Assembly (NCBI GenBank): GCA_029261055.1
Contig: JAJDCA010000014.1
Coordinates: 5,295-69,294, forward strand
Reading direction: 5' to 3'
Source: Candidatus Omnitrophota bacterium
Lineage (GTDB): Bacteria > Omnitrophota > Gorgyraeia > Zapsychrales > Zapsychraceae
Length of the DNA stretch: 64,000 nucleotides
Shown here one piece after another: positions 1,742-52,494 of the stretch (position 1 is the stretch's first letter; the number at the start of each line of letters is the position of its first letter). The notes beneath the pieces are model-generated. The model searched no databases and was not told the origin of the DNA. It worked only from the letters and a program-made list of their open reading frames with translations. The position numbers were made by a program, and so were the translations under genes.

Positions 1742-3015
1742 GCACCGAAGAAGCTCGTCGTTGTCCGCAATGTGCCGATGCGGTATGTACAGCAGCGTGC
1801 CCTATTGGTGTGGATGTGCCTGGGTTTGTGCGTTTTCTTCGTGAGGGAAATTTGTCTGCCGCTTATGAACGCATAAAAGAACAAAATTGTCTGCCTGCAG
1901 TGTGCGGCCGGATTTGTTCCGCCCCGTGTGAAGCCGCCTGTGTATTGATGGAGGAAGAATCTCCGATTGGGGTGCGTGCCTTGGAGCGTTATGCCGCAGA
2001 TTTTGGAAAACCGCGTCTTTCCCGACGGGAACGTGTAGAGCGCAAAGGAAAAAAAGTGGCCGTGGTTGGTTCCGGTCCGGCAGGGTTAGCCGCTTCTGCA
2101 GATTTAGCCCGCAAGGGTTATCAGGTGACCATTTTTGAGGCTCTTGAAAAACCCGGCGGTGTTTTGCGTTATGGCATACCGGAATTTCGCATTCCACGGA
2201 AGGTGTTAGATGGGGAGATTAATGACATTAAAGCCCTGGGCGTTAATATTGAAACGAATTTTTTTATTGGGCAAACCGCTACCGTCGCTGATCTTAAAGA
2301 GCAAGGCTATGCCGCAATTCTTTTAACGACTGGCGCAGGAATTCCTCAATTTATGGATCTTCCCGGCACAAATTTTGGTGGAGTGTATTACGGCGAAGAA
2401 TTTTTGATGCGTGTGAATTTGATGAAGGTGAATATTTTTTCGCGCAATATTCCTAATTTTGTGATTGGTCCTAAAGTTGTCGTAATCGGGTCCGGCAATA
2501 CGGCTTTAGATTGTGCCAGGGCCAGCGTACGTTTTGGCCGGGAGGTAAAGCTGATTTTTCGTCGTACTGAAGAAGATATGCGTGTCCGACCGCAAGAACG
2601 TGAATATGGCAAAGAAGAAGGGATTCAGTTGGAGCCGCTCGTCCGTCCTGTCGAAATTCTAGCAGATCAGAATAATTTTGTAAGTGGTGTTAAATGTGTG
2701 CGTATGGATTATGCTGAAGCAGAAGAGAGTGATGCGTGGGAGCTCATGCCTGTTCCCGATTCTGAATTTATTATTGAGGCCGACACCGTGATTATCGCCA
2801 TCGGACATAAGCCCAATTCCATCATTAAGCGAACAACACCGCAGCTAAAATGTGACCCCGATGAAACCATTAAGGTTGATTCTGATACCCACATGACCGC
2901 CATCAAGGGCGTCTTTTCTGCAGGAAATGTCGTCACCAACGCCGGCCCTTTAGTTGAAGCCATTGCTTCAGGAAAAAGCGTCGCGGAAGACATTCATCAG
3001 TATTTGACAAAATAA
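1654..3015 (+). CDS. nfnB: GltD-like NADPH-dependent FAD oxidoreductase with two N-terminal [4Fe-4S] motifs (NfnB / SudA-like)
   Basis: CPQCADAVCTAACP and CGRICSAPCEAAC cluster motifs. GSGPAGLAAS dinucleotide-binding motif and a second Rossmann GxGxxA. The N-terminal region KRVRNFNEVSLGYS matches the family start, implying an 88-nt overlap with the upstream gene. Confidence 0.75.
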   Translation: MGQPEGALQPKEKRVRNFNEVSLGYSKKISTEEARRCPQCADAVCTAACPIGVDVPGFVRFLREGNLSAAYERIKEQNCLPAVCGRICSAPCEAACVLMEEESPIGVRALERYAADFGKPRLSRRERVERKGKKVAVVGSGPAGLAASADLARKGYQVTIFEALEKPGGVLRYGIPEFRIPRKVLDGEINDIKALGVNIETNFFIGQTATVADLKEQGYAAILLTTGAGIPQFMDLPGTNFGGVYYGEEFLMRVNLMKVNIFSRNIPNFVIGPKVVVIGSGNTALDCARASVRFGREVKLIFRRTEEDMRVRPQEREYGKEEGIQLEPLVRPVEILADQNNFVSGVKCVRMDYAEAEESDAWELMPVPDSEFIIEADTVIIAIGHKPNSIIKRTTPQLKCDPDETIKVDSDTHMTAIKGVFSAGNVVTNAGPLVEAIASGKSVAEDIHQYLTK

Positions 3016-3101
3016 CAGGCCTTCGGTAATTCTAAAACAGAAAGTGTGGACATTGTGTGTACTTTATGTTATCCTTTAATTAAGGAAAGGAGCTTAAAGT
3101 T

Positions 3102-3389
3102 ATGGAAAAAAATATTTACAAAGACAGTCGGATTGATCTTCGCATAGAGGTGGATCAAAAGAAATTTTTAGTTTACGCAGCATCTCTTCGTGATATGAAG
3201 CTTTCATCCTTTGTTGTGGCCAGCGCTTTAAAAGAGGCTGAAGAAATTGTGGCAGATAAAATTTCTTTTGCATTACCGGAAAAAAAATGGAAGGCCTTCT
3301 GTGCCGCGCTTGATCGTCCTGCGCGTACGATTCCAAAATTGAAAAAACTTTTTACTGATCCGAGTGTGTTTGATGCGGAAAAAGAATGA
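3102..3389 (+). CDS. DUF1778-type (TacA/AtaR-like) antitoxin
   Basis: 95 aa, preceded by a GGAAAGGAG ribosome-binding site. Overlaps the start of a GNAT toxin gene, the classic TacAT arrangement. Confidence 0.6.
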   Translation: MEKNIYKDSRIDLRIEVDQKKFLVYAASLRDMKLSSFVVASALKEAEEIVADKISFALPEKKWKAFCAALDRPARTIPKLKKLFTDPSVFDAEKE

Positions 3390-3885
3390 TCTTAGTCTTC
3401 CAGTTCTTTTGAAGAAATCGTATTCCGTGACAACATTTGATTGCGGCGTTGAAGTTCTTAACACGTACCTCAAACGATTTGCCTATGTGAATAATCAAAA
3501 CAGTTCATCGCGTACATATGTAGCCGTACGGGGGAAACACGTTGTGGGTTATTACACTGTAACCCCGGGGTCTGTAACAAAGGAAGAGACTCCTCTTCGC
3601 GTTGCCAAGGGGTTAGCCAATCATCCCGTGCCTGTGATTATTTTGGCCCGCCTGGCTGTTGATAAAACAGAACAAGGCGCCGGCTTAGGCAAAGGGCTTC
3701 TGCTGGACGCTTTAATACGTATTATTCGTGCTGCTGATAGTATTGGTGGCCGTGCAATTTTAGTACATGCCAAAGACTCTAAAGCTAAATTTTTCTATAA
3801 AAAATTTGGCTTTGAACCCTCCCCAATTGACCCTTTCCATCTGTATCTTCTTGTAAAAGATGTGAAACGTACTTTAAAATCATAA
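3373..3885 (+). CDS. GNAT-family acetyltransferase toxin (TacT/AtaT/KacT-like)
   Basis: FDCG near the N-terminus and the acetyl-CoA-binding region VHAKDSKAKFFYKKFGFE. ATG at 3373 (the track ORF begins with GTG at 3364) overlaps the antitoxin stop. Confidence 0.7.
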   Translation: MRKKNDLSLPVLLKKSYSVTTFDCGVEVLNTYLKRFAYVNNQNSSSRTYVAVRGKHVVGYYTVTPGSVTKEETPLRVAKGLANHPVPVIILARLAVDKTEQGAGLGKGLLLDALIRIIRAADSIGGRAILVHAKDSKAKFFYKKFGFEPSPIDPFHLYLLVKDVKRTLKS

Positions 3886-4024: not shown

Positions 4025-4055
4025 TTGACACTTATCAAAAATATGTTATCTTTTC
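4025..4055 (+). promoter_or_regulatory. promoter of giant gene 1: TTGACA, 16-nt spacer, extended -10 TGTTATCTT. Contains a 16-mer, AATATGTTATCTTTTC, also found upstream of giant gene 2
   Basis: The motif at 4040-4055 is identical to 13629-13644. Confidence 0.5.
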
Positions 4056-4166
4056 ATTATCTGAACAAGAAAACGTTTTTTCTACAAAATTATGCCAATA
4101 ACCTGCCTTCCTATCGTCAGGCAGCCACGCCACGGATTGGTTGAATTTATCAATATTGGAGGAAAT

Positions 4167-7100
4167 ATGAGCATTTTTATAAAAAAACAACGCTTTTGTC
4201 TATTTTATAGGCTTTTATCTGCATTTATTGCCGTGGCATTCGTAACCACAACAATTATTCCGCGAGGATATGCAAATACAATGATTAATGGTCAGGGGTC
4301 AGTGCTCAGTCTTCCGATTCCCGGTACGATGGTCACGGCAAGTGAGGCGTTTGTGCCTACGCTGATTAAAGGGATTACGATTCATCCGGAGAATCCGTTA
4401 CAGTTCAATTTTATTGTAGATACGGGAAATACGGGCATGCAGCAAGGGAAGGTGCTTGAAGATGAAACGACCAAATTGGTGAAATATTTTTTGGCGGCAC
4501 TTACGGTACCGGAACAAGAGATGTGGGTCAACTTGAGTCCGTACGAAGAGAATCGTATTATTGCCGATGGCTTGGGCGATACTGAGTTAGGACGCGATAT
4601 GCTCGCGCAGGATTATTTGCTCAAACAATTGACTTCTTCTTTGATGTATCCGGAAGACGAATTAGGTGAAAGATTTTGGGATCGCGTGTATGCCCGTGCG
4701 CAAGAAGAATTCGGAACGACGGACATTCCGATGAATACGTTTAACAAGGTGTGGATTGTACCGGAGAAGGCTGTGGTGTTTGAGGACGAGAAGACATCGA
4801 GTACGTATGTGTTGGAGAGTCATTTGAAGGTGATGTTGGAGGAGGACTATGTTACGATGGAACATAATACGGATCGTAGGGGTCTGATTCATCAAACCCA
4901 GGACAAGGGCATGATAAATCATGCCCCTACGGATATCATCCGCGAAATCCTCATTCCCGAAATCGAACGCGAAGTCAACCACGGAAAAACCTTCGCCAAT
5001 CTCCGTCAAATTTACAATTCCATGATTTTAGCGACGTGGTACAAACAAAATCTCAAACAATCCCTTTTAGGGCAAGTTTACATCGACCAAAATAAAACCA
5101 AAGGCATCGACACCGAAGACAAAAAAATTACCCAAAAAATCTACAACCAATACGTCGAATCCTTCCAAAAAGGCGTCTACGACTACATCAAAGAAGATTA
5201 TGATCCCGTCACCCAGCAAATCGTTCCGAGAAAATATTTCTCGGGAGGATTATTAGGACCAGTTACATCAAATCCTGATTTTTCAATGGTTGTTTTAACA
5301 AATACGAAAGATATCGATAGAAGTTTGTTAGGTAAAAATCCGCAGTTTAGTGCTTTGTTTAATTTGGCAGATTTAGGGGGTGAGTCCAAAAGCATATTAG
5401 AAATCACACAAGCGGTCAATAATGCAACAATGATCGATAAGTATATGGTTAAGGAAAAAGTGTTGGATAAAGACGAAGCCATGACAGTGAAAGATGTATC
5501 GATGATGACGAAAAAAAAGGATGGAATAAAAAAAGTAATAAAAAGGGGAGAGATAAGAAACTTTCTTTTTTCCTTATTAGCAATTCCGTTGTTTTTTTCG
5601 ATTTTTATTCCTCCTGTAATTATTGTGCAGATGTTTGTTTCTGTAAATGATATGATGTCTCCTAATCCTTTTTTTCAAATAGAATCAGTGCAAACTAATA
5701 ATAGGCTAGAAGTACAAAATCCGTTTTCAGAAGATCTATTTAAGAAGACTATTAACGATTTGGAAAAATTTTTTCGGAGCGATAAGTCTGCAAATAAAGA
5801 ATTGAAATTCATGAAAATTAGTGAGTTTGTTGCACAATTGAAGTTTGCGCTACGAGATAATGTTAATCTTGATAATTTGAGTTGGGACATGGAGGATATT
5901 AACGAACCTCTTGTAACAGATAAAGATATATTTAACAATATTGCAAAGAGTACATCTAAATGGTTGGAAAATGCTAATGAGGAAACTCAAAAGAGGATAA
6001 TAAATCAACTTTTAGACGTTGAGGATCTTCATTATAGTAGTAAGTATAATTTTTTTAGGTCAATTGGGGGATACCTTAGAAAGCACGATCATGCCATGCT
6101 GGTCGCTCCCGAGATACGGTCAACGGTTAAGTTTCTTACGGAGACGATTGGTGAAGATGTGATGCTCGCGGATGTGCGTTTGCTTGATCAATTGAAAGCA
6201 ATAGAGAATGATGAAGAGTATCAGAATGAAGGCGGTCGTAAGAATTCCACAGGACGTGCGATTCATGACTTTATTGATGATTTAGAAAAAAAATTTGATA
6301 AGAATATGGATGTAATAAAAATGAACGAATTGGGTATTAATGTTGATGATGAAAAAAAGAAACTTGAGAATTGGCGCAATACGTTTCATAAGAAATATTA
6401 TGTTAATCAACGTATTGGATATGCAGGTATTTCGGAAGGAGAAAAGAAAAGTGCTATGAAGGTTATTAATGAAGTAAGTAGATCTTTAATAAAGAAATTC
6501 TTTAACCAATATATTGTTAAAAAGGGTAATAAGCTGATTAACACTAGGTTCTCAGCATCACAAGATCATACAATTCAACCTGAAAAATGGCATTCAGGTG
6601 GGTGGAGTGTAAAAGATAATTTCATTGGTGTTCCTCTCGCCATTGGTTCTTTGATTGCCTTGGAAAGAGAATACAAAAAGGGGGTGTATCGTGACATCAA
6701 TAACACTGGACAGGAGGTTGTCAACTTGGTGTTAGAAGAGTTTTATCAAATCAGACGATCAGAACGTGCTTCTGATTTGAGTAATGTGATTGGTCAAGTT
6801 TTGAATACGTACCGTAGGTATCAAAATTCGACAAATTCGATTGGTCAAGAAATTAAAGAAGATGCTGTTAATGATTTTCGGGATTTAGGAATAGATGAGA
6901 GTGAAATCAGGGAGTTGATCAAATCCAAAGATTCCTTCGGTGCCAAAATGTTGTACATAGCGAAACGTATCCTTTCGGATAATGTAAAAACAGACGAACA
7001 GGCTATTCAACATGCGATTAATGGGCTATCGATACCAGAGCTTGATATTCTTGATGAATTTATTGATGGTGTAGAAACGAAAGTTACAAAAGAAGATCCC

Positions 7101-8639
7101 GTATCTTTAGCAGATGTTTTAAATAAGGTTAGAGAAAAATTGGTTTATAAGTCAATCGTAAGGCCTAGGAAGCGTAATTATAGCATAATCATATCCGAAG
7201 ATTATGATTACGGATCTACTGACACGGATTCAGAGCTCAAAGAACGATTGATACGCCTCAATACAAAAAAAATGATCGCTGACAGGAAAAAAGAGTTAGG
7301 AGATAAGGCTATGGTGGCGGAAATGAAGGATATTGATAAGTTTCAGAAAGTCAGGGGTATTAATCTGGATGCTTCGATGATGGATGATGAAAGTTTGCGT
7401 AAAGAGATTAAGGTTGCTCTTGTGAATATGGATGAGCATATAAAAAAATGGGAAGGTGCGAAAAATGAGTTTCTTGAAACTTTAAATAAAATTTTGTATG
7501 AATATAGGGAGTATTCTGAAATAGAAAATAAGCTTGAGGGAGGTCTTTCAGAAAATGATGAGAAAAAGCAATATGATGTGAAGGATAGCGAAGAAAGTAT
7601 TTCTTTTTCACTAGGAATTAGTGACCAAATTAGGCTGGCGGTTGAAAGATTTTCCAACATAGTTTGGGATAAAGAAATAAAACAATATAATAGGGCAAAA
7701 CTTTGGGAAGGTGATGAGTCTCAAGGTGAGACTAATGAAGAAGAAATTGATAGAGTTCGTCAAGATGTGATAGAAATAACGCATATTGGTATTCAGGAAA
7801 TTATTAATAATATTTTAAAAGACCTGAGTAGTGAAGGTAAAGTTTTGAATTTAATAGAGCATTATTCTATTGTCGAGAAAGTATTAAATAATTTGATAAG
7901 TGAGGAGCCTACATTGAATGATGAGGTAGATTGGATAAATGTGGCATTAAGGGCTATTAATCGATTTAAAGAGATGACACAAAGATTAACGGTTGTTGAT
8001 CAAAATCTTAATATTTCAGGGGAGTCGGTTAACGATTCTGAAAAATATATTAATGAAAATGTGCTGGGACTTAAAAGGGATGCGAATACGTATATTTTGA
8101 AGATGTATTTAAAGTTTATGGGGATTGAAATAACAACCAATGCAGAATTATTTAATGAAGATGTAGATAGTTTTGGAAAGGGGCTTCTTGATTCATTGTT
8201 TAATGCTCTTAACGATAAAGATCATCCTATTAATAATGAAGGTTTTGGTCCATTTGATGATGGTATTGATTTAGAAGATGACGATTCTAATTTAGAAGAT
8301 GATCCTGATGTGGGTGATGATTCAATGATCACGCAAACTGTTAATCATATAAATAACCCTGGAGGTATCAACCTTGACGCGGCGATGTTGGATTTGCAGA
8401 TTAGGCGGGATGGGAATGGGGTGCCGTTGCCGGTTGCGGAGCAGGATTTTTCAACAATGCATATTGAAGGGTTTTTGCCGATTATGATAGATATGGCACC
8501 GGTGAGCATTCCTATGCTGCTCGGTTTCGCGGATGAAGATGGCGGCGTGCCGGTGACCGGTTGTCCTTCGGATGAAGAGGGAATCAATTGCAACCACGAT
8601 TTCATTTTAACCAAGCAGGAAGACGAGATATTTTTGTAA
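4167..8639 (+). CDS. giant secreted / membrane-anchored protein, paralog 1 (1490 aa from the ATG at 4167 with a GGAGG ribosome-binding site)
   Basis: Strong RBS plus an N-terminal hydrophobic signal or anchor. A ~330-aa N-terminal domain is shared with the protein at 13647-17357. An internal 28-aa hydrophobic segment, a long K/E/D-rich low-complexity core and an acidic D/E run follow. The C-terminal ~60-aa motif (GGINLD..LDLQ..HIEGFLP..PV) is shared with the paralog. Confidence 0.8.
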   Translation: MSIFIKKQRFCLFYRLLSAFIAVAFVTTTIIPRGYANTMINGQGSVLSLPIPGTMVTASEAFVPTLIKGITIHPENPLQFNFIVDTGNTGMQQGKVLEDETTKLVKYFLAALTVPEQEMWVNLSPYEENRIIADGLGDTELGRDMLAQDYLLKQLTSSLMYPEDELGERFWDRVYARAQEEFGTTDIPMNTFNKVWIVPEKAVVFEDEKTSSTYVLESHLKVMLEEDYVTMEHNTDRRGLIHQTQDKGMINHAPTDIIREILIPEIEREVNHGKTFANLRQIYNSMILATWYKQNLKQSLLGQVYIDQNKTKGIDTEDKKITQKIYNQYVESFQKGVYDYIKEDYDPVTQQIVPRKYFSGGLLGPVTSNPDFSMVVLTNTKDIDRSLLGKNPQFSALFNLADLGGESKSILEITQAVNNATMIDKYMVKEKVLDKDEAMTVKDVSMMTKKKDGIKKVIKRGEIRNFLFSLLAIPLFFSIFIPPVIIVQMFVSVNDMMSPNPFFQIESVQTNNRLEVQNPFSEDLFKKTINDLEKFFRSDKSANKELKFMKISEFVAQLKFALRDNVNLDNLSWDMEDINEPLVTDKDIFNNIAKSTSKWLENANEETQKRIINQLLDVEDLHYSSKYNFFRSIGGYLRKHDHAMLVAPEIRSTVKFLTETIGEDVMLADVRLLDQLKAIENDEEYQNEGGRKNSTGRAIHDFIDDLEKKFDKNMDVIKMNELGINVDDEKKKLENWRNTFHKKYYVNQRIGYAGISEGEKKSAMKVINEVSRSLIKKFFNQYIVKKGNKLINTRFSASQDHTIQPEKWHSGGWSVKDNFIGVPLAIGSLIALEREYKKGVYRDINNTGQEVVNLVLEEFYQIRRSERASDLSNVIGQVLNTYRRYQNSTNSIGQEIKEDAVNDFRDLGIDESEIRELIKSKDSFGAKMLYIAKRILSDNVKTDEQAIQHAINGLSIPELDILDEFIDGVETKVTKEDPVSLADVLNKVREKLVYKSIVRPRKRNYSIIISEDYDYGSTDTDSELKERLIRLNTKKMIADRKKELGDKAMVAEMKDIDKFQKVRGINLDASMMDDESLRKEIKVALVNMDEHIKKWEGAKNEFLETLNKILYEYREYSEIENKLEGGLSENDEKKQYDVKDSEESISFSLGISDQIRLAVERFSNIVWDKEIKQYNRAKLWEGDESQGETNEEEIDRVRQDVIEITHIGIQEIINNILKDLSSEGKVLNLIEHYSIVEKVLNNLISEEPTLNDEVDWINVALRAINRFKEMTQRLTVVDQNLNISGESVNDSEKYINENVLGLKRDANTYILKMYLKFMGIEITTNAELFNEDVDSFGKGLLDSLFNALNDKDHPINNEGFGPFDDGIDLEDDDSNLEDDPDVGDDSMITQTVNHINNPGGINLDAAMLDLQIRRDGNGVPLPVAEQDFSTMHIEGFLPIMIDMAPVSIPMLLGFADEDGGVPVTGCPSDEEGINCNHDFILTKQEDEIFL

Positions 8640-8692
8640 ATTGACATTTTGGTAATTTTTTGTAGAATGAGCTATACTTAAGTTGAGGTGAC

Positions 8693-8893
8693 ATGATGAA
8701 ATTTAAAAATATGACAGAAATATTTACGGTATATGAAAATCAGTGGGTTGCGCTAACTGATGACGACAAAATTATTGCTTCTGCAGATACTTTAGAATCT
8801 GTTTTAGAAAAGGCCTCTAAAAAAGGATATGATACTCCCCTCACTGCAAAAATCCCCGACTCTAAACACGAGTTTGTTTTATGTCATCTTTAA
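8693..8893 (+). CDS. small 66-aa protein of the kind found paired with retropepsin-like proteases (possibly DUF5678-like, family name from memory only)
   Basis: Its stop overlaps the start of the downstream protease gene. Ribosome-binding site GAGGTG. Confidence 0.45.
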   Translation: MMKFKNMTEIFTVYENQWVALTDDDKIIASADTLESVLEKASKKGYDTPLTAKIPDSKHEFVLCHL

Positions 8894-9357
8894 AAGTTCC
8901 CTATACGCGGGTTTCCACTAATTTCAATCTTTCAATGTTTAAATTTAAGAATCAACCTCTTTTAAAGGTTGGTCTTTTAGGTCAAAATAATCAATGCATT
9001 AGAGCCACGGCGTATATTGACACAGGGGCTCAAGTATGTCTTTTTAATAAAGATTATGCTACTTTTTTGGGTATAAAAAATTACAAAGATACAGAAGAAA
9101 GTATTCCCTTAACTGGTATTGGTGGGAAAAAACCTGAAAATGTGGCCTATTTTCATAGTCTAACGTTGGTTGTTTTTAAAAATCAAAAAAAATTAGAAAT
9201 AAAGAATGCATATAAAATTCAGACAAAAATAGGTTTTTTGGAAAAAGAAATAGGGTTTGCTGGGATATTAGGTGTTTATGGATTTTTGGATCAATTCTCA
9301 TTTTTAGCTAATATCCCGGAACACTATTTTGAATTAACACCGAAGTTTGTAGCTTAG
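8881..9357 (+). CDS. retropepsin-like (clan AA) aspartic protease
   Basis: YIDTGAQ active-site motif (hydrophobic-hydrophobic-D-T-G-A). ~160 aa, typical of single-domain bacterial retropepsins. Confidence 0.65.
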   Translation: MSSLKVPYTRVSTNFNLSMFKFKNQPLLKVGLLGQNNQCIRATAYIDTGAQVCLFNKDYATFLGIKNYKDTEESIPLTGIGGKKPENVAYFHSLTLVVFKNQKKLEIKNAYKIQTKIGFLEKEIGFAGILGVYGFLDQFSFLANIPEHYFELTPKFVA

Positions 9358-9398
9358 ATTAAGACATTTCCATTGTCAATTTATCGATATTTGCTAGA

Positions 9399-10253
9399 AT
9401 GGCACACATGCAGAAGATATCCGTAGCACACATCCAAAATAAAAAAGTTAAGCAAGAGAAAATCACGATGCTGACGGCGTATGATTATCCGATGGGGGTG
9501 TTGTTGGATAAAGCCGGGGTGGATATGGTGTTGGTGGGGGATTCTGTGGCCAATGTGGTTTTGGGGCTTGAATCGACCACAGAGGTGGGGATGTTTGAGA
9601 TGTTGCATCATGCCAAGGCGGTCCGTCGTGGAGTCAAAGAGGCTCTTTTGATAGGGGACATGCCGTATGAATCTTATCAAACAGCTACACAAGATGCCGT
9701 GGCCAATGCCAAACGTTTTGTGGATGAAGCGGGATGTGATGCGGTGAAATTAGAATGGTTTGACCGTTGTATTGAGGTGGCGGCTGATATTGTTCAGGCG
9801 GGCATTCCGGTGATGGGGCATGTGGGGTTAACACCTCAGACAGCTGAGCAATTAGGGGGGTTTAAAGTTCAGGGGAAGGATGCGGATTCTGCGAAGATTA
9901 TTATCGGGAATGCAAAGGCGTTGGAGGAAGCAGGGTGTTTTAGTATTGTTTTGGAGTGTGTTCCGGATAAAATTGCGCAATTAATTACAAAGCAATTATC
10001 CATTCCAACGATCGGGATTGGGGCTGGCCTTTATTGTGACGGACAGGTTCTGGTGACACACGATCTTTTAGGTTTGTTTGATCGTTTTCGTCCAAAATTT
10101 TCTAAACAGTATGTGGATTTAGGGGCCGCGGTTGTTGACGGTGTAAAGAATTTTTGTCAAGAGGTCCGTCAGGGTAAATTCCCCGATGAAGTGCATAGTT
10201 ATTCGATCAAACAAGAGGAATTATCTAAGATAAACGGAGGTGATCTTGTATGA
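9399..10253 (+). CDS. panB: 3-methyl-2-oxobutanoate hydroxymethyltransferase
   Basis: [18 protein letters not shown] and GHVGLTPQ motifs, all characteristic of PanB. Confidence 0.85.
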
Positions 10254-11535: not shown

Positions 11536-12417
11536 ATGATTTCATCACTCAAACTTTGGTTTATGGCCATTCGGCCAAAAACATTAACCGCCGCCGTGGC
11601 GCCGGTGTTGATCGGCACGGCGATGGCTTTCGGCGATGGCATTCATCATTTGCCAACCGCTTTTCTTTGTCTTTTCGGCGCTATTCTTATTCAAATCGGT
11701 ACGAATTTGGCCAATGATTATTTCGATTTCAAAAAAGGGACGGACGACGTAGATCGTATCGGGCCGACGCGGGTTACGCAGGCAGGGCTGATTTCACCCG
11801 AAGTGGTGAAATTTGCCTTTATTTTGACATTTGTTCTATCGGCATTGGTGTGTATTGCATTGGTTATCCGTGGTGGTTGGCCGATTGCGGTGATCGGTAT
11901 TCTTTCGATTATTTCCGGCATTCTTTACACGGCAGGGCCGAAACCTTTAGGGTATATGGGGCTGGGAGATGTTTTTGTTTTTGTTTTCTTTGGTCCTGTG
12001 GCAGTCGCTGGAACGTATTATGTGCAATCCTTTGAAATGAATATGGCCGTCATCCTTGCCGGTGTGGCGCCGGGTTTAATTTCCGCCGGAATTTTAACCG
12101 TCAATAATTTGCGAGATATTGTTGGAGATAAAAAATCTGGTAAAAAAACGCTGGCTGTTCGTTTTGGTCGTTCGTTTGCACAGAGTGAATATTTGTTTTC
12201 GATGATTGCCGCCTCGCTGGTGCCGGTATTGATTTATGCTCTCATTCAGGATCATTTACCCATTTTAATGGGTACAGTCGTGAGTCTTTTGGCTATTCCT
12301 ATTATGAAAAAGGTTTTGGTTTCTACGGATGGCCCTGCGCTTAACCTTGCCTTAGCGAAAACCGGAAAATTATTATTAATTTACAGTGTGCTTTTTTCGA
12401 TAGGTTGGATTTTATGA
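11536..12417 (+). CDS. menA: 1,4-dihydroxy-2-naphthoate polyprenyltransferase (UbiA family)
   Basis: Multi-pass membrane protein with the NDYFD Asp-rich prenyltransferase motif. Confidence 0.8.
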   Translation: MISSLKLWFMAIRPKTLTAAVAPVLIGTAMAFGDGIHHLPTAFLCLFGAILIQIGTNLANDYFDFKKGTDDVDRIGPTRVTQAGLISPEVVKFAFILTFVLSALVCIALVIRGGWPIAVIGILSIISGILYTAGPKPLGYMGLGDVFVFVFFGPVAVAGTYYVQSFEMNMAVILAGVAPGLISAGILTVNNLRDIVGDKKSGKKTLAVRFGRSFAQSEYLFSMIAASLVPVLIYALIQDHLPILMGTVVSLLAIPIMKKVLVSTDGPALNLALAKTGKLLLIYSVLFSIGWIL

Positions 12418-13490
12418 AAATCATTTCTTTTCAAACCTACAGATACGTTTTGCCTTTTGTGAATCCGATATCTGTGCGAGGTGTTAAGCTTTCGCAGAGG
12501 GAGGGGCTGATTATTCATTGCACGTCAGAACAAGGTATTGAAGGTTTTGGCGAGGCGGCCCCCTTACCGGGATTAAGTGAAGAAAGTTTAGAAGATGTTA
12601 TTGAAGAAGTCGAAATGTTTGAAAGTGTTTTGTTAGATCAGGATGTTCCAAAAAATATTGAAAAGTTTGAAGGCGCTTTGACAGAATGGCTTTCCGCATA
12701 TTCGCTTAGTCCATCGTTACAGTTTGCTATCGAAACGGCCATGTTAAATTTGATGGCGAATAGTCGTAAGATTCTTTTAAGTCAGCTATTCGAAGAATCC
12801 CCAGTAGAGAACATTAGTGTTAATGGTTTATTACAAGGGACAATGGATGAGGTTGTTTTACAAGCGAAGGCATGTTTGTTAAATGGATTTACCGCCATGA
12901 AATTAAAGGTTGGTCGAAAAGATATGGATGAAGATATTCGTAATGTTCAGGCGGTATCAGAAATTATTAGAGATAAAGCTTTGTTACATTTGGATGCGAA
13001 TCAGGCTTGGACATTAAAGGAAGCCGTTAAGTTTGGGCAAGCTATCGGTTGCGCGTGTGTGGATTATATTGAAGAGCCATTACAAGATGTGGCAGGGATA
13101 CCAGAATTTTTTCATCAGACATTAATCCCTGCGGCTTTGGATGAATCATTACAGAATTTAGATATTAAAGATGTTGGTTCGATCGAAGGGGCTGATGTTG
13201 TAGTTGTTAAACCTACTATTTTGGGCGGCATTGAAAAAACTTACCATCTTATCAAATATGCCAGAGAACGTGCTTTACGGTGTGTTGTCAGTTCCTCATT
13301 TGAATCTTCCATTGGAGTTACTACTTTAGCGCATTTGGCCGCAAGCCTCACACCTCGCACCGCAGCTGGATTAGATACCTTAAAATTCTTTCAAAAAGAT
13401 GTCTTGAAAAAAGGTGTTTTTATTCAAAAAGGTAAGATTCCTCTTTCTCAATGCCGGGTCCGGAAAGAAAATGTCCAAATCAATGTTTAA
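12405..13490 (+). CDS. menC: o-succinylbenzoate synthase (enolase superfamily)
   Basis: MKLKVG...LDANQAW...IEEP catalytic Lys/Asp/Glu pattern of the MR/MLE family. Sits in men context. Confidence 0.75.
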   Translation: MDFMKIISFQTYRYVLPFVNPISVRGVKLSQREGLIIHCTSEQGIEGFGEAAPLPGLSEESLEDVIEEVEMFESVLLDQDVPKNIEKFEGALTEWLSAYSLSPSLQFAIETAMLNLMANSRKILLSQLFEESPVENISVNGLLQGTMDEVVLQAKACLLNGFTAMKLKVGRKDMDEDIRNVQAVSEIIRDKALLHLDANQAWTLKEAVKFGQAIGCACVDYIEEPLQDVAGIPEFFHQTLIPAALDESLQNLDIKDVGSIEGADVVVVKPTILGGIEKTYHLIKYARERALRCVVSSSFESSIGVTTLAHLAASLTPRTAAGLDTLKFFQKDVLKKGVFIQKGKIPLSQCRVRKENVQINV

Positions 13491-13628
13491 ATATAAAATA
13501 TTTATTTATGAAGATATTCTTGCCGTTGTGCGCTGAATACGTTTTCTCTTACCATTTTTTCAGCGTCATGAATTAATCTTACCAAGTCTTATTCTAATAA
13601 AAATATATTTTTGGCAGGGTAGTAAGGA

Positions 13629-13644
13629 ATATGTTATCTTTTCC
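13629..13644 (+). promoter_or_regulatory. conserved 16-mer AATATGTTATCTTTTC (extended -10-like), identical to 4040-4055
   Basis: Exact repeat seen upstream of both giant paralogs. Here it abuts the annotated ATG (13647), so the true start is probably downstream (ATG 13659). Confidence 0.5.
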
Positions 13645-13646
13645 AT

Positions 13647-16600
13647 ATGAAGTCGATTATGCGGAGTATTTTTTATTTTATTATTTATGTAATACTGTTA
13701 ACTTTTGGGATGACGACATGTTTTCCTTCAGGGGTAAGCTGTGCTCAGGATGTTTCAAGTTATCCTGTTGAATTAGGCTTGCCGCCTATTGGGCAAAGTC
13801 TTTCTTTAAGTCCTCTCTATGTGCCGCCATTGTTCAAAGGGTTAATGGTTTATCCTCAAGAGCCTTTTCGTTTTGATTTTATTATGGACACTGGGCATGC
13901 AGGTTTATTGCCTGATGAAAAAGCTACAGAAGGGGAAAAGTTGATGCGTTATTTTCTTGCAGCTTTGACTATTCCTGAGGATGAACTGTGGGTCAACCTT
14001 TCGCCGTACGAGGCAGATCGGATTATTCCTGATGCATTGGGTGTGACAGAAATGGGGCGGGATATGCTGGCGCAGGATTATTTACTCAAACAGTTGACGG
14101 CATCATTGATGAATCCTGAAGAAGAGTTAGGGGGAGAATTTTGGGATAGGGTGCACACACAGGCTTATGCACAGTACGGGGTGACGAATATTGACATGAA
14201 CATGTTTCATAAAATTTGGATTGTGCCGGAGAAGGCATTAGTTTATGAAAATACAGGGCAGGTATTTATTTTGGAGTCAAAGTTGAATGTTATGTTGGAG
14301 GAGGATTACAAGGCATTGAACAACAATAATCCCAATGCCGAGTCCCGAGCAACCCTTGGTGAAAATCAGTTGCGAGGGATCTCTACTAAAATTATCCGTG
14401 AAATTCTCATTCCCGCAATCAAACAAGAAATCAACCACGGCCAAACCTTCGCCCCTTTACGCCAAATTTATCATTCCATGATTCTCGCCACGTGGTACAA
14501 GCAGGCATTACAAGAAAGCCTGATTAATCAATCCTATTCCAATCAAAAAAAGACATTGGGTGTGGATATTGAAGATAAAGACGTTAAAGATAAAATTTAT
14601 CAGCAATACATTGCAGCCTTCAAGCAAGGAGTGTCTGACATTATCAGAGAAGATTATGATCCAGTCACCCAGGAAATTATTCCGCGAAAATATTTCTCTG
14701 GTGGGTTGATCGGAAAAGTTAAATTTATCGCAACCAACGATGCCTCCCAACTCACTACTGCCCAAGCCGTAGGCGACTGGGCACTTTTAGCAGGAGATGT
14801 ACAGCTTCGTAATTATTTAGAAATAGATTTAGGTGTGTCGGTGAATAAAATTAATACAGATGAGTATGTAAAAATACTTAATGATAAAGTATTTCAGAAT
14901 GTAGCAGCATTACTTGAGCAGAATAAATTTAGTCAAGCAAAGAAATTACTGTCTGTAGTCAGGAAAGGTTATGAAGAAATTAAACAGGTTAATCAAAATG
15001 CTGCGGTGGGAAGTCTTAATTATAAACGAGCAAAGATTGTTGAGTTGAATAGTAAGCATGTTGAGAATTTGATTCATGATATTGTTAGAGATGAATCGAA
15101 TATTGGTTTTTTATCTATTGATTATGAAGTTCGTAATCTTTTAAAAGTTTTTTTTGAGGAATATAATATTACAGAAGATGGGTTTAGGTTTTTTTTAGAT
15201 CATGTTTTACATGGAATGAGTATAGGCGATCTTAAAGAACGAATAGAAAAATTCTTTTTATGGGGGAATGCGAAAGTAACGGATGAAAAATTATCAAAAG
15301 AACTTGCCCAAAAGATATGGAATTTAGATTTTGAAGGGGGCGTAGGCCTAGAAACGTTTCCTGAGCGATCACGATTTGGTGAGAAAATTATTTTAAATCT
15401 TATTCAAAAATTGATGGATATTAATAAGCAGGAGTTAAATGTTGGAATTATTGGGGGGGGATGGTTTCCTGATAATGGGATGCCTTTTTCTAATGGACCA
15501 ATTATTACAGGAAAAATGGCTTACCGAATTGGGGAAATATGTTCTGCTTGTAGAGTTAGCGGGTTAGATATTTTTTTTCCTGTTGAAAAAGTTGAAGATT
15601 CTATAGGAAATATTCTTTTGGTAGATAAGGACGGATATTATGTTTCTGTGCAGGGGTCGAATATTTTAATAGAACCGTTTCTTGATATGCAAAAACGGTT
15701 GTTAAAAAAGAGAAAAATACTTTTAGCGATGCGGCAAGCTTCAGGAGATAATCCAGAGGTTTATGTGGTTGAAAAAAATGAAGGTTTGATTGAAGCAGGA
15801 GATCGTATAGTAAGAAATCCTCTTGATCGATATGTAGAAAGATTTCATGATGTTAATCGAGGTGGTCAAGGGGTTAAATTGAAGAATTTACATTTTCAGA
15901 GAGCAGGAAAAAATTTTGAGTTGTACAGTGAAAAGAAATTTGATGGGATATATACAGCTAATACGGGTTGGAGAAATTTGCCTGAAACGTATTTGGATGG
16001 TATGCAAAAATGGGGAAAGAAAATTAAAAAGGGAGGTTTTTTAGTAAGTGAAATTAATTTTCCAAAGGGGTTCCCTCTTGTTGTAGGTGAATTCCAAAAA
16101 GGAGAAGATGAGTTGTCTTTAATGAAACTCCATTTTTCTATGTGGGATTATTATTCAATTATTTCATCTGGAAGAATTTTTGATAGTAAAGATGCTTTTG
16201 ATCATATCGTCGAGACGAAATATCGTAATATTCTTATGGAGGTTTGGAAAAAATTGATCAATATTAAAGGTGGGGATTTAACAATAATAGGAGCGGACCT
16301 TACTGAAGAGTTTATTGATAATGTAAAAGTTGAATTAAACGGCTTAGCCGCCGTCCACATTGCCGATGCGGAGGAGGGGCGGGAAGGGCATTTGGTGGTG
16401 ACGATTGATTTTGATAAGTCAATGATGGGGGGGGATAACTCTGGGCGTAAAAAAAATAAACGGACTGTTTTTGTGGAAACATTGGTTAAGAAGTGGATAA
16501 AGAAAAATAAGGGTAAGAGAATAAGAAAAATTCCTATAAGTGGTGCAGCATTAGGAGGGATTGTGATGCTCAGTAAAGAGACTGCGCTTAAAGCTGTTAA

Positions 16601-17357
16601 ATATTCTAGTGATGGAAAAGTTGAAACAACATATAAACCGGCATTGCTTGATGAATATGATTTTTTGGTATTTATGAAAAAAATTTTAAATGAGTCCCCA
16701 GGTGCGTATCAGAGTGTGGAATTCTTAAAGGTTAGGATAAATTTAAAAAATAAATTTGATAATATCATAGATAAAATTCGGAAAGTAGAAGAGGAAAATA
16801 GTAATAAAAAATTAAAAGGAAAGAAAAGAATTGGAGGGCAGCCCGGTTATAACAAAATGGCATTGGATGATTTTGTGGCATATACAAGAAAAAGGAAGAA
16901 ACATCTCGATACATTTCCAATTAAATCAATAGAATTGCAATTTTTATTTGGTTTTCCTAAAAGGGAGAATATTTCAACATATCGCTCTCGATATTTAGGT
17001 GGGCTTATTATAAAGGAGCCTCTGGACAAAAATGACAAGATAAATTTTTTAAAGTTAATTCGTAGATGGGCAAAAAAATATGAAGGGGAAAATGAAATTA
17101 TTAAAGAAATGCCTGGGAAAATTAACGTTATGCTAAAAGATTTTGCGGCTTTGGCTTTACCTCAGCAAGGTGGAGTTGATTTTAATCCGCAATATTTGGA
17201 TTTACAAAGGCAAGGGAATAGGATAGATTCAGCTGTACTGACAGAAGGCCTGACGCAAGGTCAGATTCATTTTGATGGTTTGGAGCCTGTGGTTTTACGC
17301 GTTTTGCCGGTGACGGATATTGTGGGGTTGTTTGAGGCTTCAGGAGTTATGTGGTAA
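13647..17357 (+). CDS. giant secreted protein, paralog 2 (1236 aa)
   Basis: N-terminal signal peptide. The ~330-aa N-terminal domain is ~55-60% identical to paralog 1, with ~80% nucleotide-identity tracts. The core is divergent, and the C-terminal motif (GGVDFN..LDLQ..HFDGLEP..PV) is shared. Confidence 0.8.
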   Translation: MKSIMRSIFYFIIYVILLTFGMTTCFPSGVSCAQDVSSYPVELGLPPIGQSLSLSPLYVPPLFKGLMVYPQEPFRFDFIMDTGHAGLLPDEKATEGEKLMRYFLAALTIPEDELWVNLSPYEADRIIPDALGVTEMGRDMLAQDYLLKQLTASLMNPEEELGGEFWDRVHTQAYAQYGVTNIDMNMFHKIWIVPEKALVYENTGQVFILESKLNVMLEEDYKALNNNNPNAESRATLGENQLRGISTKIIREILIPAIKQEINHGQTFAPLRQIYHSMILATWYKQALQESLINQSYSNQKKTLGVDIEDKDVKDKIYQQYIAAFKQGVSDIIREDYDPVTQEIIPRKYFSGGLIGKVKFIATNDASQLTTAQAVGDWALLAGDVQLRNYLEIDLGVSVNKINTDEYVKILNDKVFQNVAALLEQNKFSQAKKLLSVVRKGYEEIKQVNQNAAVGSLNYKRAKIVELNSKHVENLIHDIVRDESNIGFLSIDYEVRNLLKVFFEEYNITEDGFRFFLDHVLHGMSIGDLKERIEKFFLWGNAKVTDEKLSKELAQKIWNLDFEGGVGLETFPERSRFGEKIILNLIQKLMDINKQELNVGIIGGGWFPDNGMPFSNGPIITGKMAYRIGEICSACRVSGLDIFFPVEKVEDSIGNILLVDKDGYYVSVQGSNILIEPFLDMQKRLLKKRKILLAMRQASGDNPEVYVVEKNEGLIEAGDRIVRNPLDRYVERFHDVNRGGQGVKLKNLHFQRAGKNFELYSEKKFDGIYTANTGWRNLPETYLDGMQKWGKKIKKGGFLVSEINFPKGFPLVVGEFQKGEDELSLMKLHFSMWDYYSIISSGRIFDSKDAFDHIVETKYRNILMEVWKKLINIKGGDLTIIGADLTEEFIDNVKVELNGLAAVHIADAEEGREGHLVVTIDFDKSMMGGDNSGRKKNKRTVFVETLVKKWIKKNKGKRIRKIPISGAALGGIVMLSKETALKAVKYSSDGKVETTYKPALLDEYDFLVFMKKILNESPGAYQSVEFLKVRINLKNKFDNIIDKIRKVEEENSNKKLKGKKRIGGQPGYNKMALDDFVAYTRKRKKHLDTFPIKSIELQFLFGFPKRENISTYRSRYLGGLIIKEPLDKNDKINFLKLIRRWAKKYEGENEIIKEMPGKINVMLKDFAALALPQQGGVDFNPQYLDLQRQGNRIDSAVLTEGLTQGQIHFDGLEPVVLRVLPVTDIVGLFEASGVMW

Positions 17358-17440
17358 TAAAAATAGTTGCGATTTAAAAAATATCTGGATGTGACTAAAA
17401 GAGCATGGTATTCTTTGAATAGAGAAAGGGAGGTTATAAA

Positions 17441-17659
17441 ATGTATAAGTCCAGTATTGTGAATGATATTCTTCAAAGAGCTTCTTCATTATCTCTGGAG
17501 GAGCAAAATTTTATTGTGGAGACGCTTAATAAGCGTATTCATGAGTATCGGAGAAATAAAATTGTACGACGGGTGAAGGAGGCTGAAAAGAATTACGGTA
17601 AAGGGAATGTAAGCAAAGGTAAGGTTAGTGATTTAATGAGTGAGTTAGATGATGATTAG
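17441..17659 (+). CDS. putative antitoxin (72 aa)
   Basis: AGGGAGG ribosome-binding site. Overlaps by 11 nt with a RelE/YafQ-like toxin gene. Confidence 0.45.
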   Translation: MYKSSIVNDILQRASSLSLEEQNFIVETLNKRIHEYRRNKIVRRVKEAEKNYGKGNVSKGKVSDLMSELDDD

Positions 17660-17921
17660 TCTAATTTGGGATGCCGCGTTTATTCGGATTCTTAAAAAAT
17701 GGAAGAAAAAACATCCGCATTTAATTAAAACTTTCCAAGAAGTGCTCTCTGAATTTGTTAAAAATCCTTTTCAACCTTCCCTACGAACACACTGTTTGAG
17801 TGGTAAGTTAAAAGACTGTTGGGCTTGTAGTATTACTTACGAATATCGCGTAGTATTTAAATTTATTTCCAAGAATAAAGTGCTGCTTATCGATATTGGA
17901 ACGCATGACGAAGTATACTAA
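17649..17921 (+). CDS. RelE/YafQ-family type II toxin (mRNA interferase)
   Basis: C-terminal HCLSGKLKDCWACSITYEYRVVFKF..LLIDIGTHDEVY matches the YafQ/RelE signature. Confidence 0.65.
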   Translation: MMISLIWDAAFIRILKKWKKKHPHLIKTFQEVLSEFVKNPFQPSLRTHCLSGKLKDCWACSITYEYRVVFKFISKNKVLLIDIGTHDEVY

Positions 17922-19299
17922 TTATCCTCCGCAGGTTTGTTTTAAAATCCAATCAAATAAAATCTTTATTATTTGCGGGCAGCAAATTGTAACATATGCG
18001 CAGTTTTTTGATGCTGTTGGTGGTGTGATTGATTATTTTCAATCAAGCGGAATTAAGTCTAAAGATCGTGTTGGAATTTGCTGCGCTAATAGTGTTGAGT
18101 ACGTGGCAGCATTAATAGCCCTGTGGCGTATTGGCACTGTCGCTTGTCTTTTGAGTCCGCGCTTACCACAGGAGGCGTTGCAGCAGCAATGTAGCAATTT
18201 GAGTTGTCAGAATGTTTTAACGAGCTTTCCTGAAGTGCCCTATTCAGATAAATTAACAGAAACAAATCCAAAATGGTCTTTGCCGGTAGATCAAGAGGCT
18301 ACGATTATGTTTACCTCCGGCAGTAGTGCCTCGCCCAAAGCGGTTTTGCATACGATTGGTAATCATTATTTCAGTGCCAAGGGCGCGAATGTTCATATTC
18401 CGTTAGTCGCTGGGGATCGATGGTTATTAACGCTTCCATTGCATCACGTCGGGGGTTTAAGTATTTTATTTCGTGCACTTTTGGCCGGGGCAACACTGGT
18501 TATTCCCGAGAAAGATGAGCCTATTGAGGCGGCAATACGGCGCTACGGCATTACGCATGTATCGATGGTGCCGACGCAGATTTATCGTTTATTAGGGGAA
18601 AATGAAGAAGGTGATTTAAAAAGTTTGAAGGCGATTCTTGTCGGCGGAGGGCCGATACCGGAAGCCCTTTTACAAAAAGCAATGGAAAAAGGTTTCCCGG
18701 TTCATACGACGTACGGCTTAACAGAAATGGCTTCGCAAGTTGCCACGTCAAACGTGTTGACGTCGGAAACTATTTCAAATGGCGGTAGAGTGTTGGAGGA
18801 TAGAGAAGTAAATGTTTCTGAAGAAGGTGAAATTTTAGTGCGTGGCAAGACGCTTTTTCAAGGTTATGTAGAAGGCGGGCACATTGATTGTTCGTTTGAC
18901 GCAGGCGGTTGGTTCGCAACCGGTGATTTAGGTGAGCTCAACGACGAAGGTTATTTAAAAGTGACTGGACGTAAAGATAATATGTTTATCTCCGGTGGCG
19001 AAAATATTCAGCCGGAAGAAATTGAACGGCATTTGTGTCGGTTAGAAGGCGTTGAGGAGGCTATCGTCATTCCCGTAGAACATGCGGAATTTGGCTTTCG
19101 CCCGGTGGCGTTTATAAAGTACATGAATGGAAAATCAATAACCTCCGAAGAAATCAAAAGAACTCTGCAACAATATCTCCCTAAATTCAAAATTCCCGAT
19201 ACCTTTTACGATTGGCCGGAAGGCATTATTAGTGAGGGGATTAAGCCAAGTCGGCTAGTATTTAAGCATTATCTTGAGCGAACAATTCCACGATCTTAG
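17896..19299 (+). CDS. menE: o-succinylbenzoate-CoA ligase (adenylate-forming enzyme)
   Basis: AMP-binding motifs TSGSSASPK, YGLTE and GDLG, in men context. The start is uncertain (17896 or 17905). Confidence 0.75.
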   Translation: MERMTKYTNYPPQVCFKIQSNKIFIICGQQIVTYAQFFDAVGGVIDYFQSSGIKSKDRVGICCANSVEYVAALIALWRIGTVACLLSPRLPQEALQQQCSNLSCQNVLTSFPEVPYSDKLTETNPKWSLPVDQEATIMFTSGSSASPKAVLHTIGNHYFSAKGANVHIPLVAGDRWLLTLPLHHVGGLSILFRALLAGATLVIPEKDEPIEAAIRRYGITHVSMVPTQIYRLLGENEEGDLKSLKAILVGGGPIPEALLQKAMEKGFPVHTTYGLTEMASQVATSNVLTSETISNGGRVLEDREVNVSEEGEILVRGKTLFQGYVEGGHIDCSFDAGGWFATGDLGELNDEGYLKVTGRKDNMFISGGENIQPEEIERHLCRLEGVEEAIVIPVEHAEFGFRPVAFIKYMNGKSITSEEIKRTLQQYLPKFKIPDTFYDWPEGIISEGIKPSRLVFKHYLERTIPRS

Positions 19300-19751: not shown

Positions 19752-19779
19752 TTGACAAAAAAAGTAAAAGTTGTATTAT
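19752..19779 (+). promoter_or_regulatory. sigma70-like promoter: TTGACA, 16-nt spacer, TATTAT
   Basis: Read directly. The -35 overlaps the right arm of a TTGTCAATG / CATTGACAA inverted repeat. Confidence 0.5.
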
Positions 19780-34977: not shown

Positions 34978-35039
34978 TTCGACAGGTTTGTTTTACTTGT
35001 TTGAGAACCACAAGTAGAGAAGGTGTTTTAAAAATTTAT

Positions 35040-35113
35040 CGGGGCGTAGCGCAGTTTCCGCCACACAGCGTGGCGGATCCGCCAAAGTTTTGATGGCGGA
35101 GGCTAGCGCGCAG
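35040..35113 (+). pseudogene. partial duplicate of the tRNA-Pro 5' end (nt 1-29) interrupted by a 44-nt GC-rich double hairpin
   Basis: 35040-35056 equals tRNA nt 1-17, and 35101-35112 equals tRNA nt 18-29. The 35057-35100 insert folds as CCGCCAC-ACAGC-GTGGCGG and TCCGCCA-AAGTTTTGA-TGGCGGA. Confidence 0.5.
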
Positions 35114-35128
35114 AAAAAAAGAAATTAT

Positions 35129-35205
35129 CGGGGCGTAGCGCAGTTGGCTAGCGCGCAACGTTCGGGACGTTGAGGTCGACGGTTCAAATCCGTCCGCCCC
35201 GACCA
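35129..35205 (+). tRNA. tRNA-Pro (anticodon CGG), CCA encoded
   Basis: Manual cloverleaf: acceptor CGGGGCG/CGCCCCG, D-stem GCGC, anticodon stem CAACG/CGTTG, loop TTCGGGA, T-arm GACGG-TTCAAAT-CCGTC, discriminator A, CCA. Confidence 0.85.
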
Positions 35206-51863: not shown

Positions 51864-52494
51864 CGGGAGCGGTAAACAACAAAATAAAAATTGGTTTGGT
51901 CAAAATTGGATAGCTTTAATTGCGCTTTTAATCTCAATTTTCTCGGTTTTTTATACCCATTTGAATTATGGCCTTCAGACTAAGTTATCTCATTTGCAGA
52001 TAAAACCAATGATAAAAACGTATTTTGATTTGCCTGTTGATAAAAATCCTATTTTTGTTGTGGCTAATGAAGGTAGTGTCCCAGCAGTATCTCTTAGCTG
52101 TGGTTATTATGTTTTCACATTTAATAAGAATCAGAAAAAAGTTGTGGTGGCAGGTAAGGCAGGACGAGTTTTTAGCCCAGGAGTGATATATAAAGAACTT
52201 TTTAACCCAACAGACTACGAATCAATGGAGTTGGTCGGAGTATCATCTGCCGAGAATACTCTTGTAATTTATCAATTTGATTTAATTTATTTTCGTAAAC
52301 AAGATATGGATGAATATTCAAGAAGGGAATATTATTTTGTAGATAATGGGCGTTTATTATCGCATTCGGAATATCGTTTGGATCCATTGTATCGTGATGT
52401 AATGTATCAGATTTCTCAGACAATTATTCCTGATTCTCAGTGGGATTCGGGTGCTTTGAGACAATATTTAGAAAATCAATCTGAATTTAAATGA
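51856..52494 (+). CDS. membrane-anchored hypothetical protein embedded between hsdM and hsdS (212 aa)
   Basis: ATG at 51856 overlaps the hsdM stop. One N-terminal transmembrane helix. No recognisable motif. Confidence 0.5.
   Translation: MDNGSGKQQNKNWFGQNWIALIALLISIFSVFYTHLNYGLQTKLSHLQIKPMIKTYFDLPVDKNPIFVVANEGSVPAVSLSCGYYVFTFNKNQKKVVVAGKAGRVFSPGVIYKELFNPTDYESMELVGVSSAENTLVIYQFDLIYFRKQDMDEYSRREYYFVDNGRLLSHSEYRLDPLYRDVMYQISQTIIPDSQWDSGALRQYLENQSEFK

Follow-up and report, generated by a model that had tools for sequence, protein, structure and literature searches.

Extended −10 ('TGn') promoters with a −16 'TRTG' element are reportedly used by sigma-A in Bacillus and other Gram-positive bacteria, and the −10 sequence favored by sigma-S (RpoS) of Escherichia coli is said to be about (T/G)CTATACTTAA; RpoS is, as far as we know, a proteobacterial factor. 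We know of no experimental work on transcription signals in the Omnitrophota, a phylum that to our knowledge has no cultured representatives, and a literature search found no paper on Omnitrophota promoters. Here we analyze a 16-nucleotide (nt) sequence, AATATGTTATCTTTTC, that stands upstream of two large paralogous genes (gene 1 and gene 2) in a 64,000-nt stretch of a Candidatus Omnitrophota genome (contig JAJDCA010000014.1, positions 5,295 to 69,294 of the forward strand; hereafter the window). We consider it probable (about 0.8) that this 16-mer is the extended −10 core of an ordinary sigma-70-type promoter before both genes. The same promoter type, often with an adjoining palindrome, most likely recurs before relatives of the two genes across the Omnitrophota.

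A scan of the window identified two exact copies of the 16-mer, both on the plus strand (4040-4055 and 13628-13643), and no further copy at up to two mismatches. An identical motif before both giant genes, as in the original prediction, is therefore present, with its second copy shifted by one base from the 13629-13644 first given. The gene-1 copy ends 111 nt before the ATG at 4167, in agreement with the earlier estimate, and between the gene-2 copy and the ATG at 13647 there are 3 nt where 2 had been given. That a 16-mer is repeated is by itself weak evidence and close to chance expectation in 64 kb: 10 repeated 16-mers, in 4 maximal pairs, are present in the window, and 2.1 ± 2.2 (maximum 9) in its dinucleotide shuffles. 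As the shuffles nearly reproduce the repetition, the case rests on position and comparison. What goes beyond chance is that both copies occupy the promoter position of paralogous genes and that the motif recurs upstream of homologues in other genomes.

Both copies are intergenic, point towards their gene and read TATG-T-TATCTT-TTTC, with the TG one base ahead of a TAnnnT hexamer. Taken as A-A-TATG-T-TATCTT-TTTC, the 16-mer would consist of a TRTG-type −16 element, a TG at −15/−14, the −10 hexamer TATCTT and a T-rich discriminator. An extended −10-like element with a TTGACA or TTGGCA −35 box at a suitable distance had been proposed for each copy, and this is what we find, with spacers of 16 nt (gene 1) and 18 nt (gene 2); the two gene-1 hexamers, with TG before the second, amount to 10/12 matches. 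The RNA polymerase holoenzyme would make its −35 contacts at TTGACA or TTGGCA and its −10 contacts at the 16-mer block, and transcription of gene 1 would start near 4059, giving a predicted 5′ untranslated region of 108 nt that carries a GGAGGA ribosome site. Scored with the family position-weight matrix described below, the gene-1 copy (21.1-21.3 bits) and the gene-2 copy (18.2-18.4 bits) rank first and second in the window, and the five top matches are all intergenic. The similar motif suspected before the TacA-TacT pair was also located: TGTTATCCTT at 3067-3076, with TGGACA 17 nt upstream, precedes the TacA gene (ATG 3102; Pfam TacA1; the pair has a GNAT domain) and scores 15.6 bits, the best non-family match in the entire data set.

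To compare upstream regions across the family, we assembled the 79 best loci (49-60% identical) together with the window, which yielded 86 family upstream regions, with 98 other intergenic regions serving as controls. The family regions belong to homologues of the N-terminal domain common to genes 1 and 2 in Omnitrophota metagenome-assembled genomes (MAGs), and both strands of 566 kb were searched for patterns. Unbiased k-mer counts for the family regions were led by ATATGTTA, TATGTTAT, TATCTTT, TATATTT and TATACTT. The pattern ATATG.TA[TA]..T matched 31 times, 26 of them directly upstream of family genes and all of these oriented towards the gene; the other five comprise one match 467 nt upstream in one locus (L033) and four within coding sequence. 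ATATG.TA...T occurs in 24/86 family regions and in 0/98 other intergenic regions (Fisher p = 1.6e-9), whereas the two sets are alike in the density of the generic TG.TA...T (2.33 versus 1.88 per kb). A matrix refined on the family has the consensus (A/T)ATATG-t-TAT(A/C)(T/C)TT, and scores above 10.5 bits were obtained in 38/86 family regions versus 3/98 others (p = 6e-12).

The 38 high-scoring sites have a consistent layout. TG is present in 33/38, the preceding ATA in 35-36/38 and a T after the hexamer in 36/38. A TTG lies 16, 17 or 18 nt upstream in 29/38 sites (12, 9 and 8, respectively), and any other TTG spacer from 8 to 31 nt accounts for at most 4 sites. Among the family promoters, the start codon follows the −10 box by as few as 3 and as many as 238 nt. 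This variable distance, together with the constant −35 spacing, ties the motif to transcription and not to the open reading frame (ORF) or its start codon. Four further loci, found through metagenome proteins and kept outside matrix building, were scanned whole (about 14-22 kb each). Three of the four had their top match 50-90 nt ahead of the family gene (19.4, 17.7 and 21.1 bits). In one of them (L204), AAAAATATGTTATCTTTTC contains the exact 16-mer of the window, with TTGACA 16 nt upstream and GAAAACGTTTCC centered at about +15; L201 has the same layout. The family gene of L202 is preceded by TTGACA-16-TATACT-T without TATG. The proposal of a shared promoter element is thus backed by the extended −10 form, the −35 spacing and conservation upstream of a gene family.

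The family promoters resemble the Gram-positive TRTG promoters in carrying TATG directly before n-TAnnnT, in having TTGnnn at 16-18 nt and in being intergenic and gene-oriented. They differ in belonging to the Omnitrophota, in a hexamer that reads TAT(A/C)(T/C)T followed by T instead of TATAAT, and in being concentrated on one gene family where the TRTG element is a general form. They are also distinct from the canonical TTGACA-16-TATAAT housekeeping promoters of the same organisms. Near-perfect canonical promoters stand before the DUF5678 gene, panB and ahpC in the window, which indicates that the general promoter consensus of the organism is E. coli-like; the DUF5678 gene, with its TAGAAT promoter, is the gene downstream of gene 1. 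In L202, rpsA has TTGACA-16-GATAAT, and the stretch before secE-nusG-rplK contains a perfect TTGACA-16-TATAAT. Where TTG stands 16-18 nt upstream, A occupies the fifth position of the −10 hexamer in 14/84 family cases versus 22/39 others (p = 1.4e-5), and a pyrimidine does so in 65/84 versus 14/39. We considered and rejected the idea that the 16-mer is simply a strong consensus promoter, because housekeeping and ribosomal operon promoters are TATAAT-type and the family −10 hexamers differ from them.

A second element accompanies the family promoters. It takes the form of the perfect palindrome GAAAACGTTTTC or of close variants (GAAAnCGnTTTC, in many cases flanked by A...T), with the consensus (a)GAAAnCGnTTTC(t). 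At up to one mismatch the window contains only two matches, one before each large gene (Table 1). In all loci together, the 400 nt ahead of family genes contain 14/18 such matches, although they make up 6.4% of the sequence (binomial p = 4e-14). In relaxed form the palindrome is found in 24/86 family regions versus 4/98 others (p = 7e-6), and two of those four control regions are the same intergenic regions viewed from the divergent gene. Measured from the start that the −10 matrix predicts, palindrome centers form two clusters, one at +16 to +20 (9 sites, gene 1 among them) and the other at −62 to −59 (6 sites). Examples of palindrome positions outside the window are L201 9965, L204 9971, L063 2885 and L052 2806. 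This phasing lends independent support to the promoter assignment.

The palindrome suggests a putative binding site for a dimeric regulator, which would bind at +16 before gene 1, a repressor-like position, and at −106 before gene 2. The consensus (a)GAAAnCGnTTTC(t) is a 14-16 bp dyad with a central CG that matches known operators, as in LacI/GalR-type sites, among which the E. coli PurR box and the Gram-positive CcpA cre are likewise 12-14 bp palindromes with a central CG. The exact core GAAAACGTTTTC is that of the PurR operator in structure 1PNR (acGaAAACGTTTtCgt; PMC4655474) and of a CcpA-bound site in group A Streptococcus (AAAGAAAACGTTTTCT; PMC8359418). The palindrome is placed at both about +17 and about −60, which is not typical of a single simple repressor. 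We take the likeness to LacI-family operators as a lead, not as a test.

Gene 1 encodes 1490 amino acids (aa), and its start is likely the ATG at 4167 although its ORF opens at 4092, because homology to relatives begins there and a Shine-Dalgarno sequence, GGAGGA, lies upstream at 4158-4163. The proteins of genes 1 and 2 share a signal-peptide-like N-terminus, a domain of about 370 aa (50-55% identity) and a short C-terminal motif, and are otherwise unrelated; neither matched any Pfam or NCBIfam model. Relatives of the N-terminal domain number more than 1480, and nearly all of the named ones come from Candidatus Omnitrophota. At least 572 family loci were confirmed in a scan of one genome per species, several MAGs carrying five or more copies, and members combine the common N-terminal domain with unrelated C-terminal bodies. 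The promoter consensus is retained in front of this large multi-copy family, whose members are secreted or membrane proteins. The non-conserved 856-aa part of the gene-2 protein (window 14787-17354) found only itself among 5.8 billion clustered proteins, and footprinting of gene-2 orthologues was therefore rejected; one locus (L001) is the same strain with an identical gene-2 upstream region, and so was useless for this purpose.

The start of gene 2 bears directly on the promoter geometry. Three starts are in use: 13647 (1236 aa, the longest ORF), 13659 (1232 aa, the Logan assembly) and 13710 (1215 aa, NCBI). The gene-2 −10 hexamer ends at 13640, and the seventh base after it, the usual start point, is the A of the ATG at 13647. 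Since the predicted transcription start coincides with this A, the balance tips slightly towards a leaderless gene-2 mRNA that would begin at 13647. The start at 13659 favored in the original prediction becomes less likely for the same reason, and 13659 or 13710 are possible alternatives. No GGAGG-like Shine-Dalgarno sequence is found in the 3 nt before the ATG at 13647 or the 12 nt before that at 13659; gene 1 and TacA have strong ones. In gene 2, L032, L074 and L055, an in-frame ATG follows the end of the −10 hexamer at 7, 7, 6 and 10 nt, respectively, without a Shine-Dalgarno sequence, a likeness to leaderless bacterial mRNAs that is one of geometry only. Gene 1 and most family members are unlike such mRNAs, with ordinary leaders of 20-240 nt and Shine-Dalgarno sequences.

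Table 1. Positions in the window of the predicted promoters, operator-like palindromes and large genes discussed in the text
Feature	Position	Strand	Remarks
Promoter of the TacA-TacT pair, like that of the family	3047-3076	+	TGGACA 3047-3052, 17-nt spacer, TATG-T-TATCCT 3065-3075, then T
Gene-1 −35 hexamer	4025-4030	+	TTGACA; 16-nt spacer to TATCTT; preceded by CC (family cCTTG form)
Gene-1 extended −10 (16-mer)	4040-4055	+	TATG 4042-4045, TG 4044-4045, TATCTT 4047-4052, T-rich discriminator
Predicted gene-1 transcription start	4059	+	A; 7th base past the −10 hexamer, from −10 geometry
Operator-like palindrome, gene 1	4069-4080		GAAAACGTTTTT; 1 mismatch to GAAAACGTTTTC; center about +16 from predicted start
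Gene 1	4167-8639	+	1490 aa; signal-peptide-like N-terminus; conserved N-terminal domain of about 370 aa
Canonical promoter, DUF5678 gene	8641-8668		TTGACA-16-TAGAAT
Canonical promoter, panB	9373-9400		TTGTCA-16-TAGAAT
Operator-like palindrome, gene 2	13535-13546		GAATACGTTTTC; 1 mismatch; center about −106 from predicted start
Gene-2 −35 hexamer	13611-13616	+	TTGGCA; 18-nt spacer to TATCTT, TG before
Gene-2 extended −10 (16-mer)	13628-13643	+	TG 13632-13633, TATCTT 13635-13640
Gene 2	13647-17357	+	1236 aa from ATG 13647; alternative starts 13659, 13710
Canonical promoter, ahpC	19752-19779		TTGACA-16-TATTAT

Identity of the two 16-mers could in principle reflect chance, descent or selection. 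That a functionless AT-rich 16-mer was merely repeated by chance has on its side the roughly two repeated 16-mers per shuffled window and a metagenome scan in which the 15-mer AATATGTTATCTTTT gave at least 120 matches, mostly in AT-rich DNA of unrelated organisms, with no family gene nearby among the matches listed. A few of the listed matches resemble generic TTGACA-N17 extended −10 promoters, and the scan is uninformative on Omnitrophota. Against chance stand the placement of both copies, with −35 boxes, at the promoter position of paralogues, a family-wide enrichment of p about 1e-9 to 1e-12 and the validation of the motif out of sample, and we regard this explanation as exceedingly improbable. 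The original prediction held that the duplication which produced the two genes had included the regulatory region. The genes are paralogous (50-55% identity over about 370 aa), and a promoter could have been copied along with them and persisted as a neutral leftover, with no selection on its sequence. This claim did not survive comparison: the flanks of the two copies fail to align (MAFFT), the spacings differ both to the −35 box (16 versus 18 nt) and to the start codon (111 versus 3 nt), and a homologue from another organism (L204) is preceded by the identical 16-mer too. In their homologous coding DNA the paralogues are 62% identical overall and 46% identical at third codon positions, with a longest exact match of 15 nt, so that an unconstrained 16-mer would not have survived; the upstream 16-mer, isolated from its flanks, is the longest exact match between the two loci. 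In other organisms, identical or 15-of-16 variants (L204, L063) precede homologues that are 49-57% identical. When the high-scoring family promoters were compared in 703 pairs, two pairs agreed over the full 16 positions (the two window copies, and L012 versus L014 from different MAGs) and 11 had a single difference, including L063 versus the window. A neutral leftover is accordingly very improbable, and the identity of the two copies points instead to a tight selected consensus, (A/T)ATATG-n-TAT(A/C)(T/C)TT, which both match; shared descent followed by purifying selection is possible for these two copies.

Selection could also act on something other than a −10 box. If the 16-mer were mainly a transcription factor site resembling a −10 box, with the true promoter elsewhere, its strong family specificity and a conservation beyond usual −10 needs (ATA before the TG, TT after the hexamer) would be explained. 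Such a site would not explain the fixed 16-18 nt relation to TTG or the ATG 6-10 nt downstream in four members; the 16-mer has no dyad or direct-repeat symmetry, and a separate palindrome, phased relative to it, already fits the role of a regulator site. We judge a factor site to be quite unlikely. A structured RNA element at the 5′ end, for example a riboswitch or small RNA target, has in its favor a position upstream of genes and nothing more, and can hardly be credited: with the predicted starts the 16-mer is untranscribed, its distance to the start codon varies as described above, Rfam has no family at the 16-mer or in the gene-1 leader (the only match in the window being tRNA-Pro at 35129-35202), and the gene-1 leader folds no better than its shuffles (z = 0.40). 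A different question is which sigma factor would read the promoter. A dedicated alternative factor of the sigma-70 family, group-2-like or other, could take the place of the housekeeping sigma, so that the 16-mer would mark a sigma regulon made up of this gene family and some toxin-antitoxin pairs. The systematic departure of the family −10 hexamers from TATAAT, above all at the fifth base, speaks for such a factor, as do the ATA before the TG, the T after the hexamer and the use of TATTAT, GATAAT and TATAAT by AhpC, rpsA and the secE-rplK operon. When T-rich or A-rich bases come after it, TATACT resembles the E. coli sigma-S type −10 consensus: TATACT and TATCTT agree with the RpoS −10 in their fifth base, a pyrimidine, and in the T that follows the hexamer, and differ from it at position −13, which is mostly T and not C (22/38 sites), so that the likeness is one of resemblance only. 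However, TTG at 16-18 nt, TGn and TAnnnT are what a primary sigma reads, and TATACT is also found among the promoters of other genes (7/39). We consider a dedicated sigma unlikely; the primary sigma may instead read the distinct −10 as a variant with a kinetic or regulatory role.

Several observations weigh against an ordinary promoter shared by the family, our preferred reading. Start sites and use by polymerase are predictions from the sequence, and Pfam searches of essentially all window proteins detected no sigma gene. The same searches detected no LacI-like or other obvious regulator. None was found beside the family genes either, since only tandem family genes recur among 182 clustered neighbor ORFs of the 79 loci, and the genes divergent from palindrome-bearing regions are not regulators. 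Only about 44% of the family upstream regions score high with the matrix, and several of the low scorers are tandem or operon-like, are located at the end of a contig or have TATACTT but no TATG. Promoters of this class are also present outside the family, at TacA in the window and at a MazE gene in L201. Some loci come from one MAG or from related MAGs and are not fully independent of each other, and the 15-mer is frequent by chance in AT-rich DNA of unrelated organisms.

The surroundings of the family genes show some recurrent features. Gene 2 lies between menC and menE of an otherwise ordinary menB-menA-menC-menE menaquinone cluster (window 12405-19299), is followed by a 72-aa ORF and a YafQ-type toxin gene (17649-17921), and looks like an insertion into the menaquinone operon. 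Toxin-antitoxin pairs repeatedly flank family genes: TacAT, DUF5678 with an aspartyl-protease-like ORF, YafQ, MazE, PemK and HicA, at 3102-3885, 8690-9357 and 17400-17921 in the window, 2670-3196 and 13500-14068 in L201, and 12030-12569 in L204. The antitoxin genes for TacA (window) and MazE (L201) have the TATG-n-TAT..T promoter type of the family. In 16/79 loci (including L003, L004, L006, L009, L019, L021, L039, L052 and L071) a neighboring ORF, mostly directly upstream, falls into one cluster and is apparently the body or C-terminus of another family member, which indicates that family genes often stand in tandem.

Elsewhere in the window, the family matrix matches the minus strand at 55095-55130 (TG at 55112) with 17.8 bits, as TTGTTT-17-TATATT with TATG. 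This site points leftwards, antisense to the 3′ end of the ORF at 54540-55094, with no ORF downstream but one of 48 aa, and may be the promoter of an antisense or small RNA. Inserted between murE and murF of a cell-wall and division cluster is a type I restriction-modification system at 49854-58982 (hsdM, hsdS, a DUF3800 gene, an unknown ORF and hsdR), and its HsdR carries a C-terminal Peptidase_S24 (LexA-like) domain (residues 1043-1155), an unusual fusion. The 21-nt direct repeat TTATCGGGGCGTAGCGCAGTT is present at 35036-35056 and 35125-35145; the second copy overlaps the 5′ end of tRNA-Pro (35129-35205), so that the first resembles an incomplete duplicate of the tRNA. At 38910-39797 there is a tyrosine recombinase gene.

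The kinds of element described here, an extended −10 promoter and a dyad operator, are textbook; a conserved, family-linked module of promoter plus operator in an uncultivated phylum is worth following. The promoter model cTTGnnn, 16-18 nt, (A/T)ATATGnTAT(A/C)(T/C)TT singles out one large gene family and could be used to list a regulon in complete genomes and to interpret metatranscriptomes. Its predicted starts, including those of leaderless mRNAs, bear on disputed start codons such as the three annotated for gene 2, and the palindromic operator with its two preferred positions is a further testable prediction. More speculatively, and in our estimate improbable, the promoter core and the phased palindrome could constitute a phylum-wide regulon under a dedicated regulator, possibly with a dedicated sigma, that would control hypervariable multi-copy exported proteins (at least 5 copies in some MAGs, with orphan or unrelated C-terminal parts). 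If so, one factor would switch paralogues in opposite directions, repressing some from an operator at about +17 and activating others from about −60, and these host-dependent or predatory nanobacteria would choose their surface or effector variant at the level of transcription.

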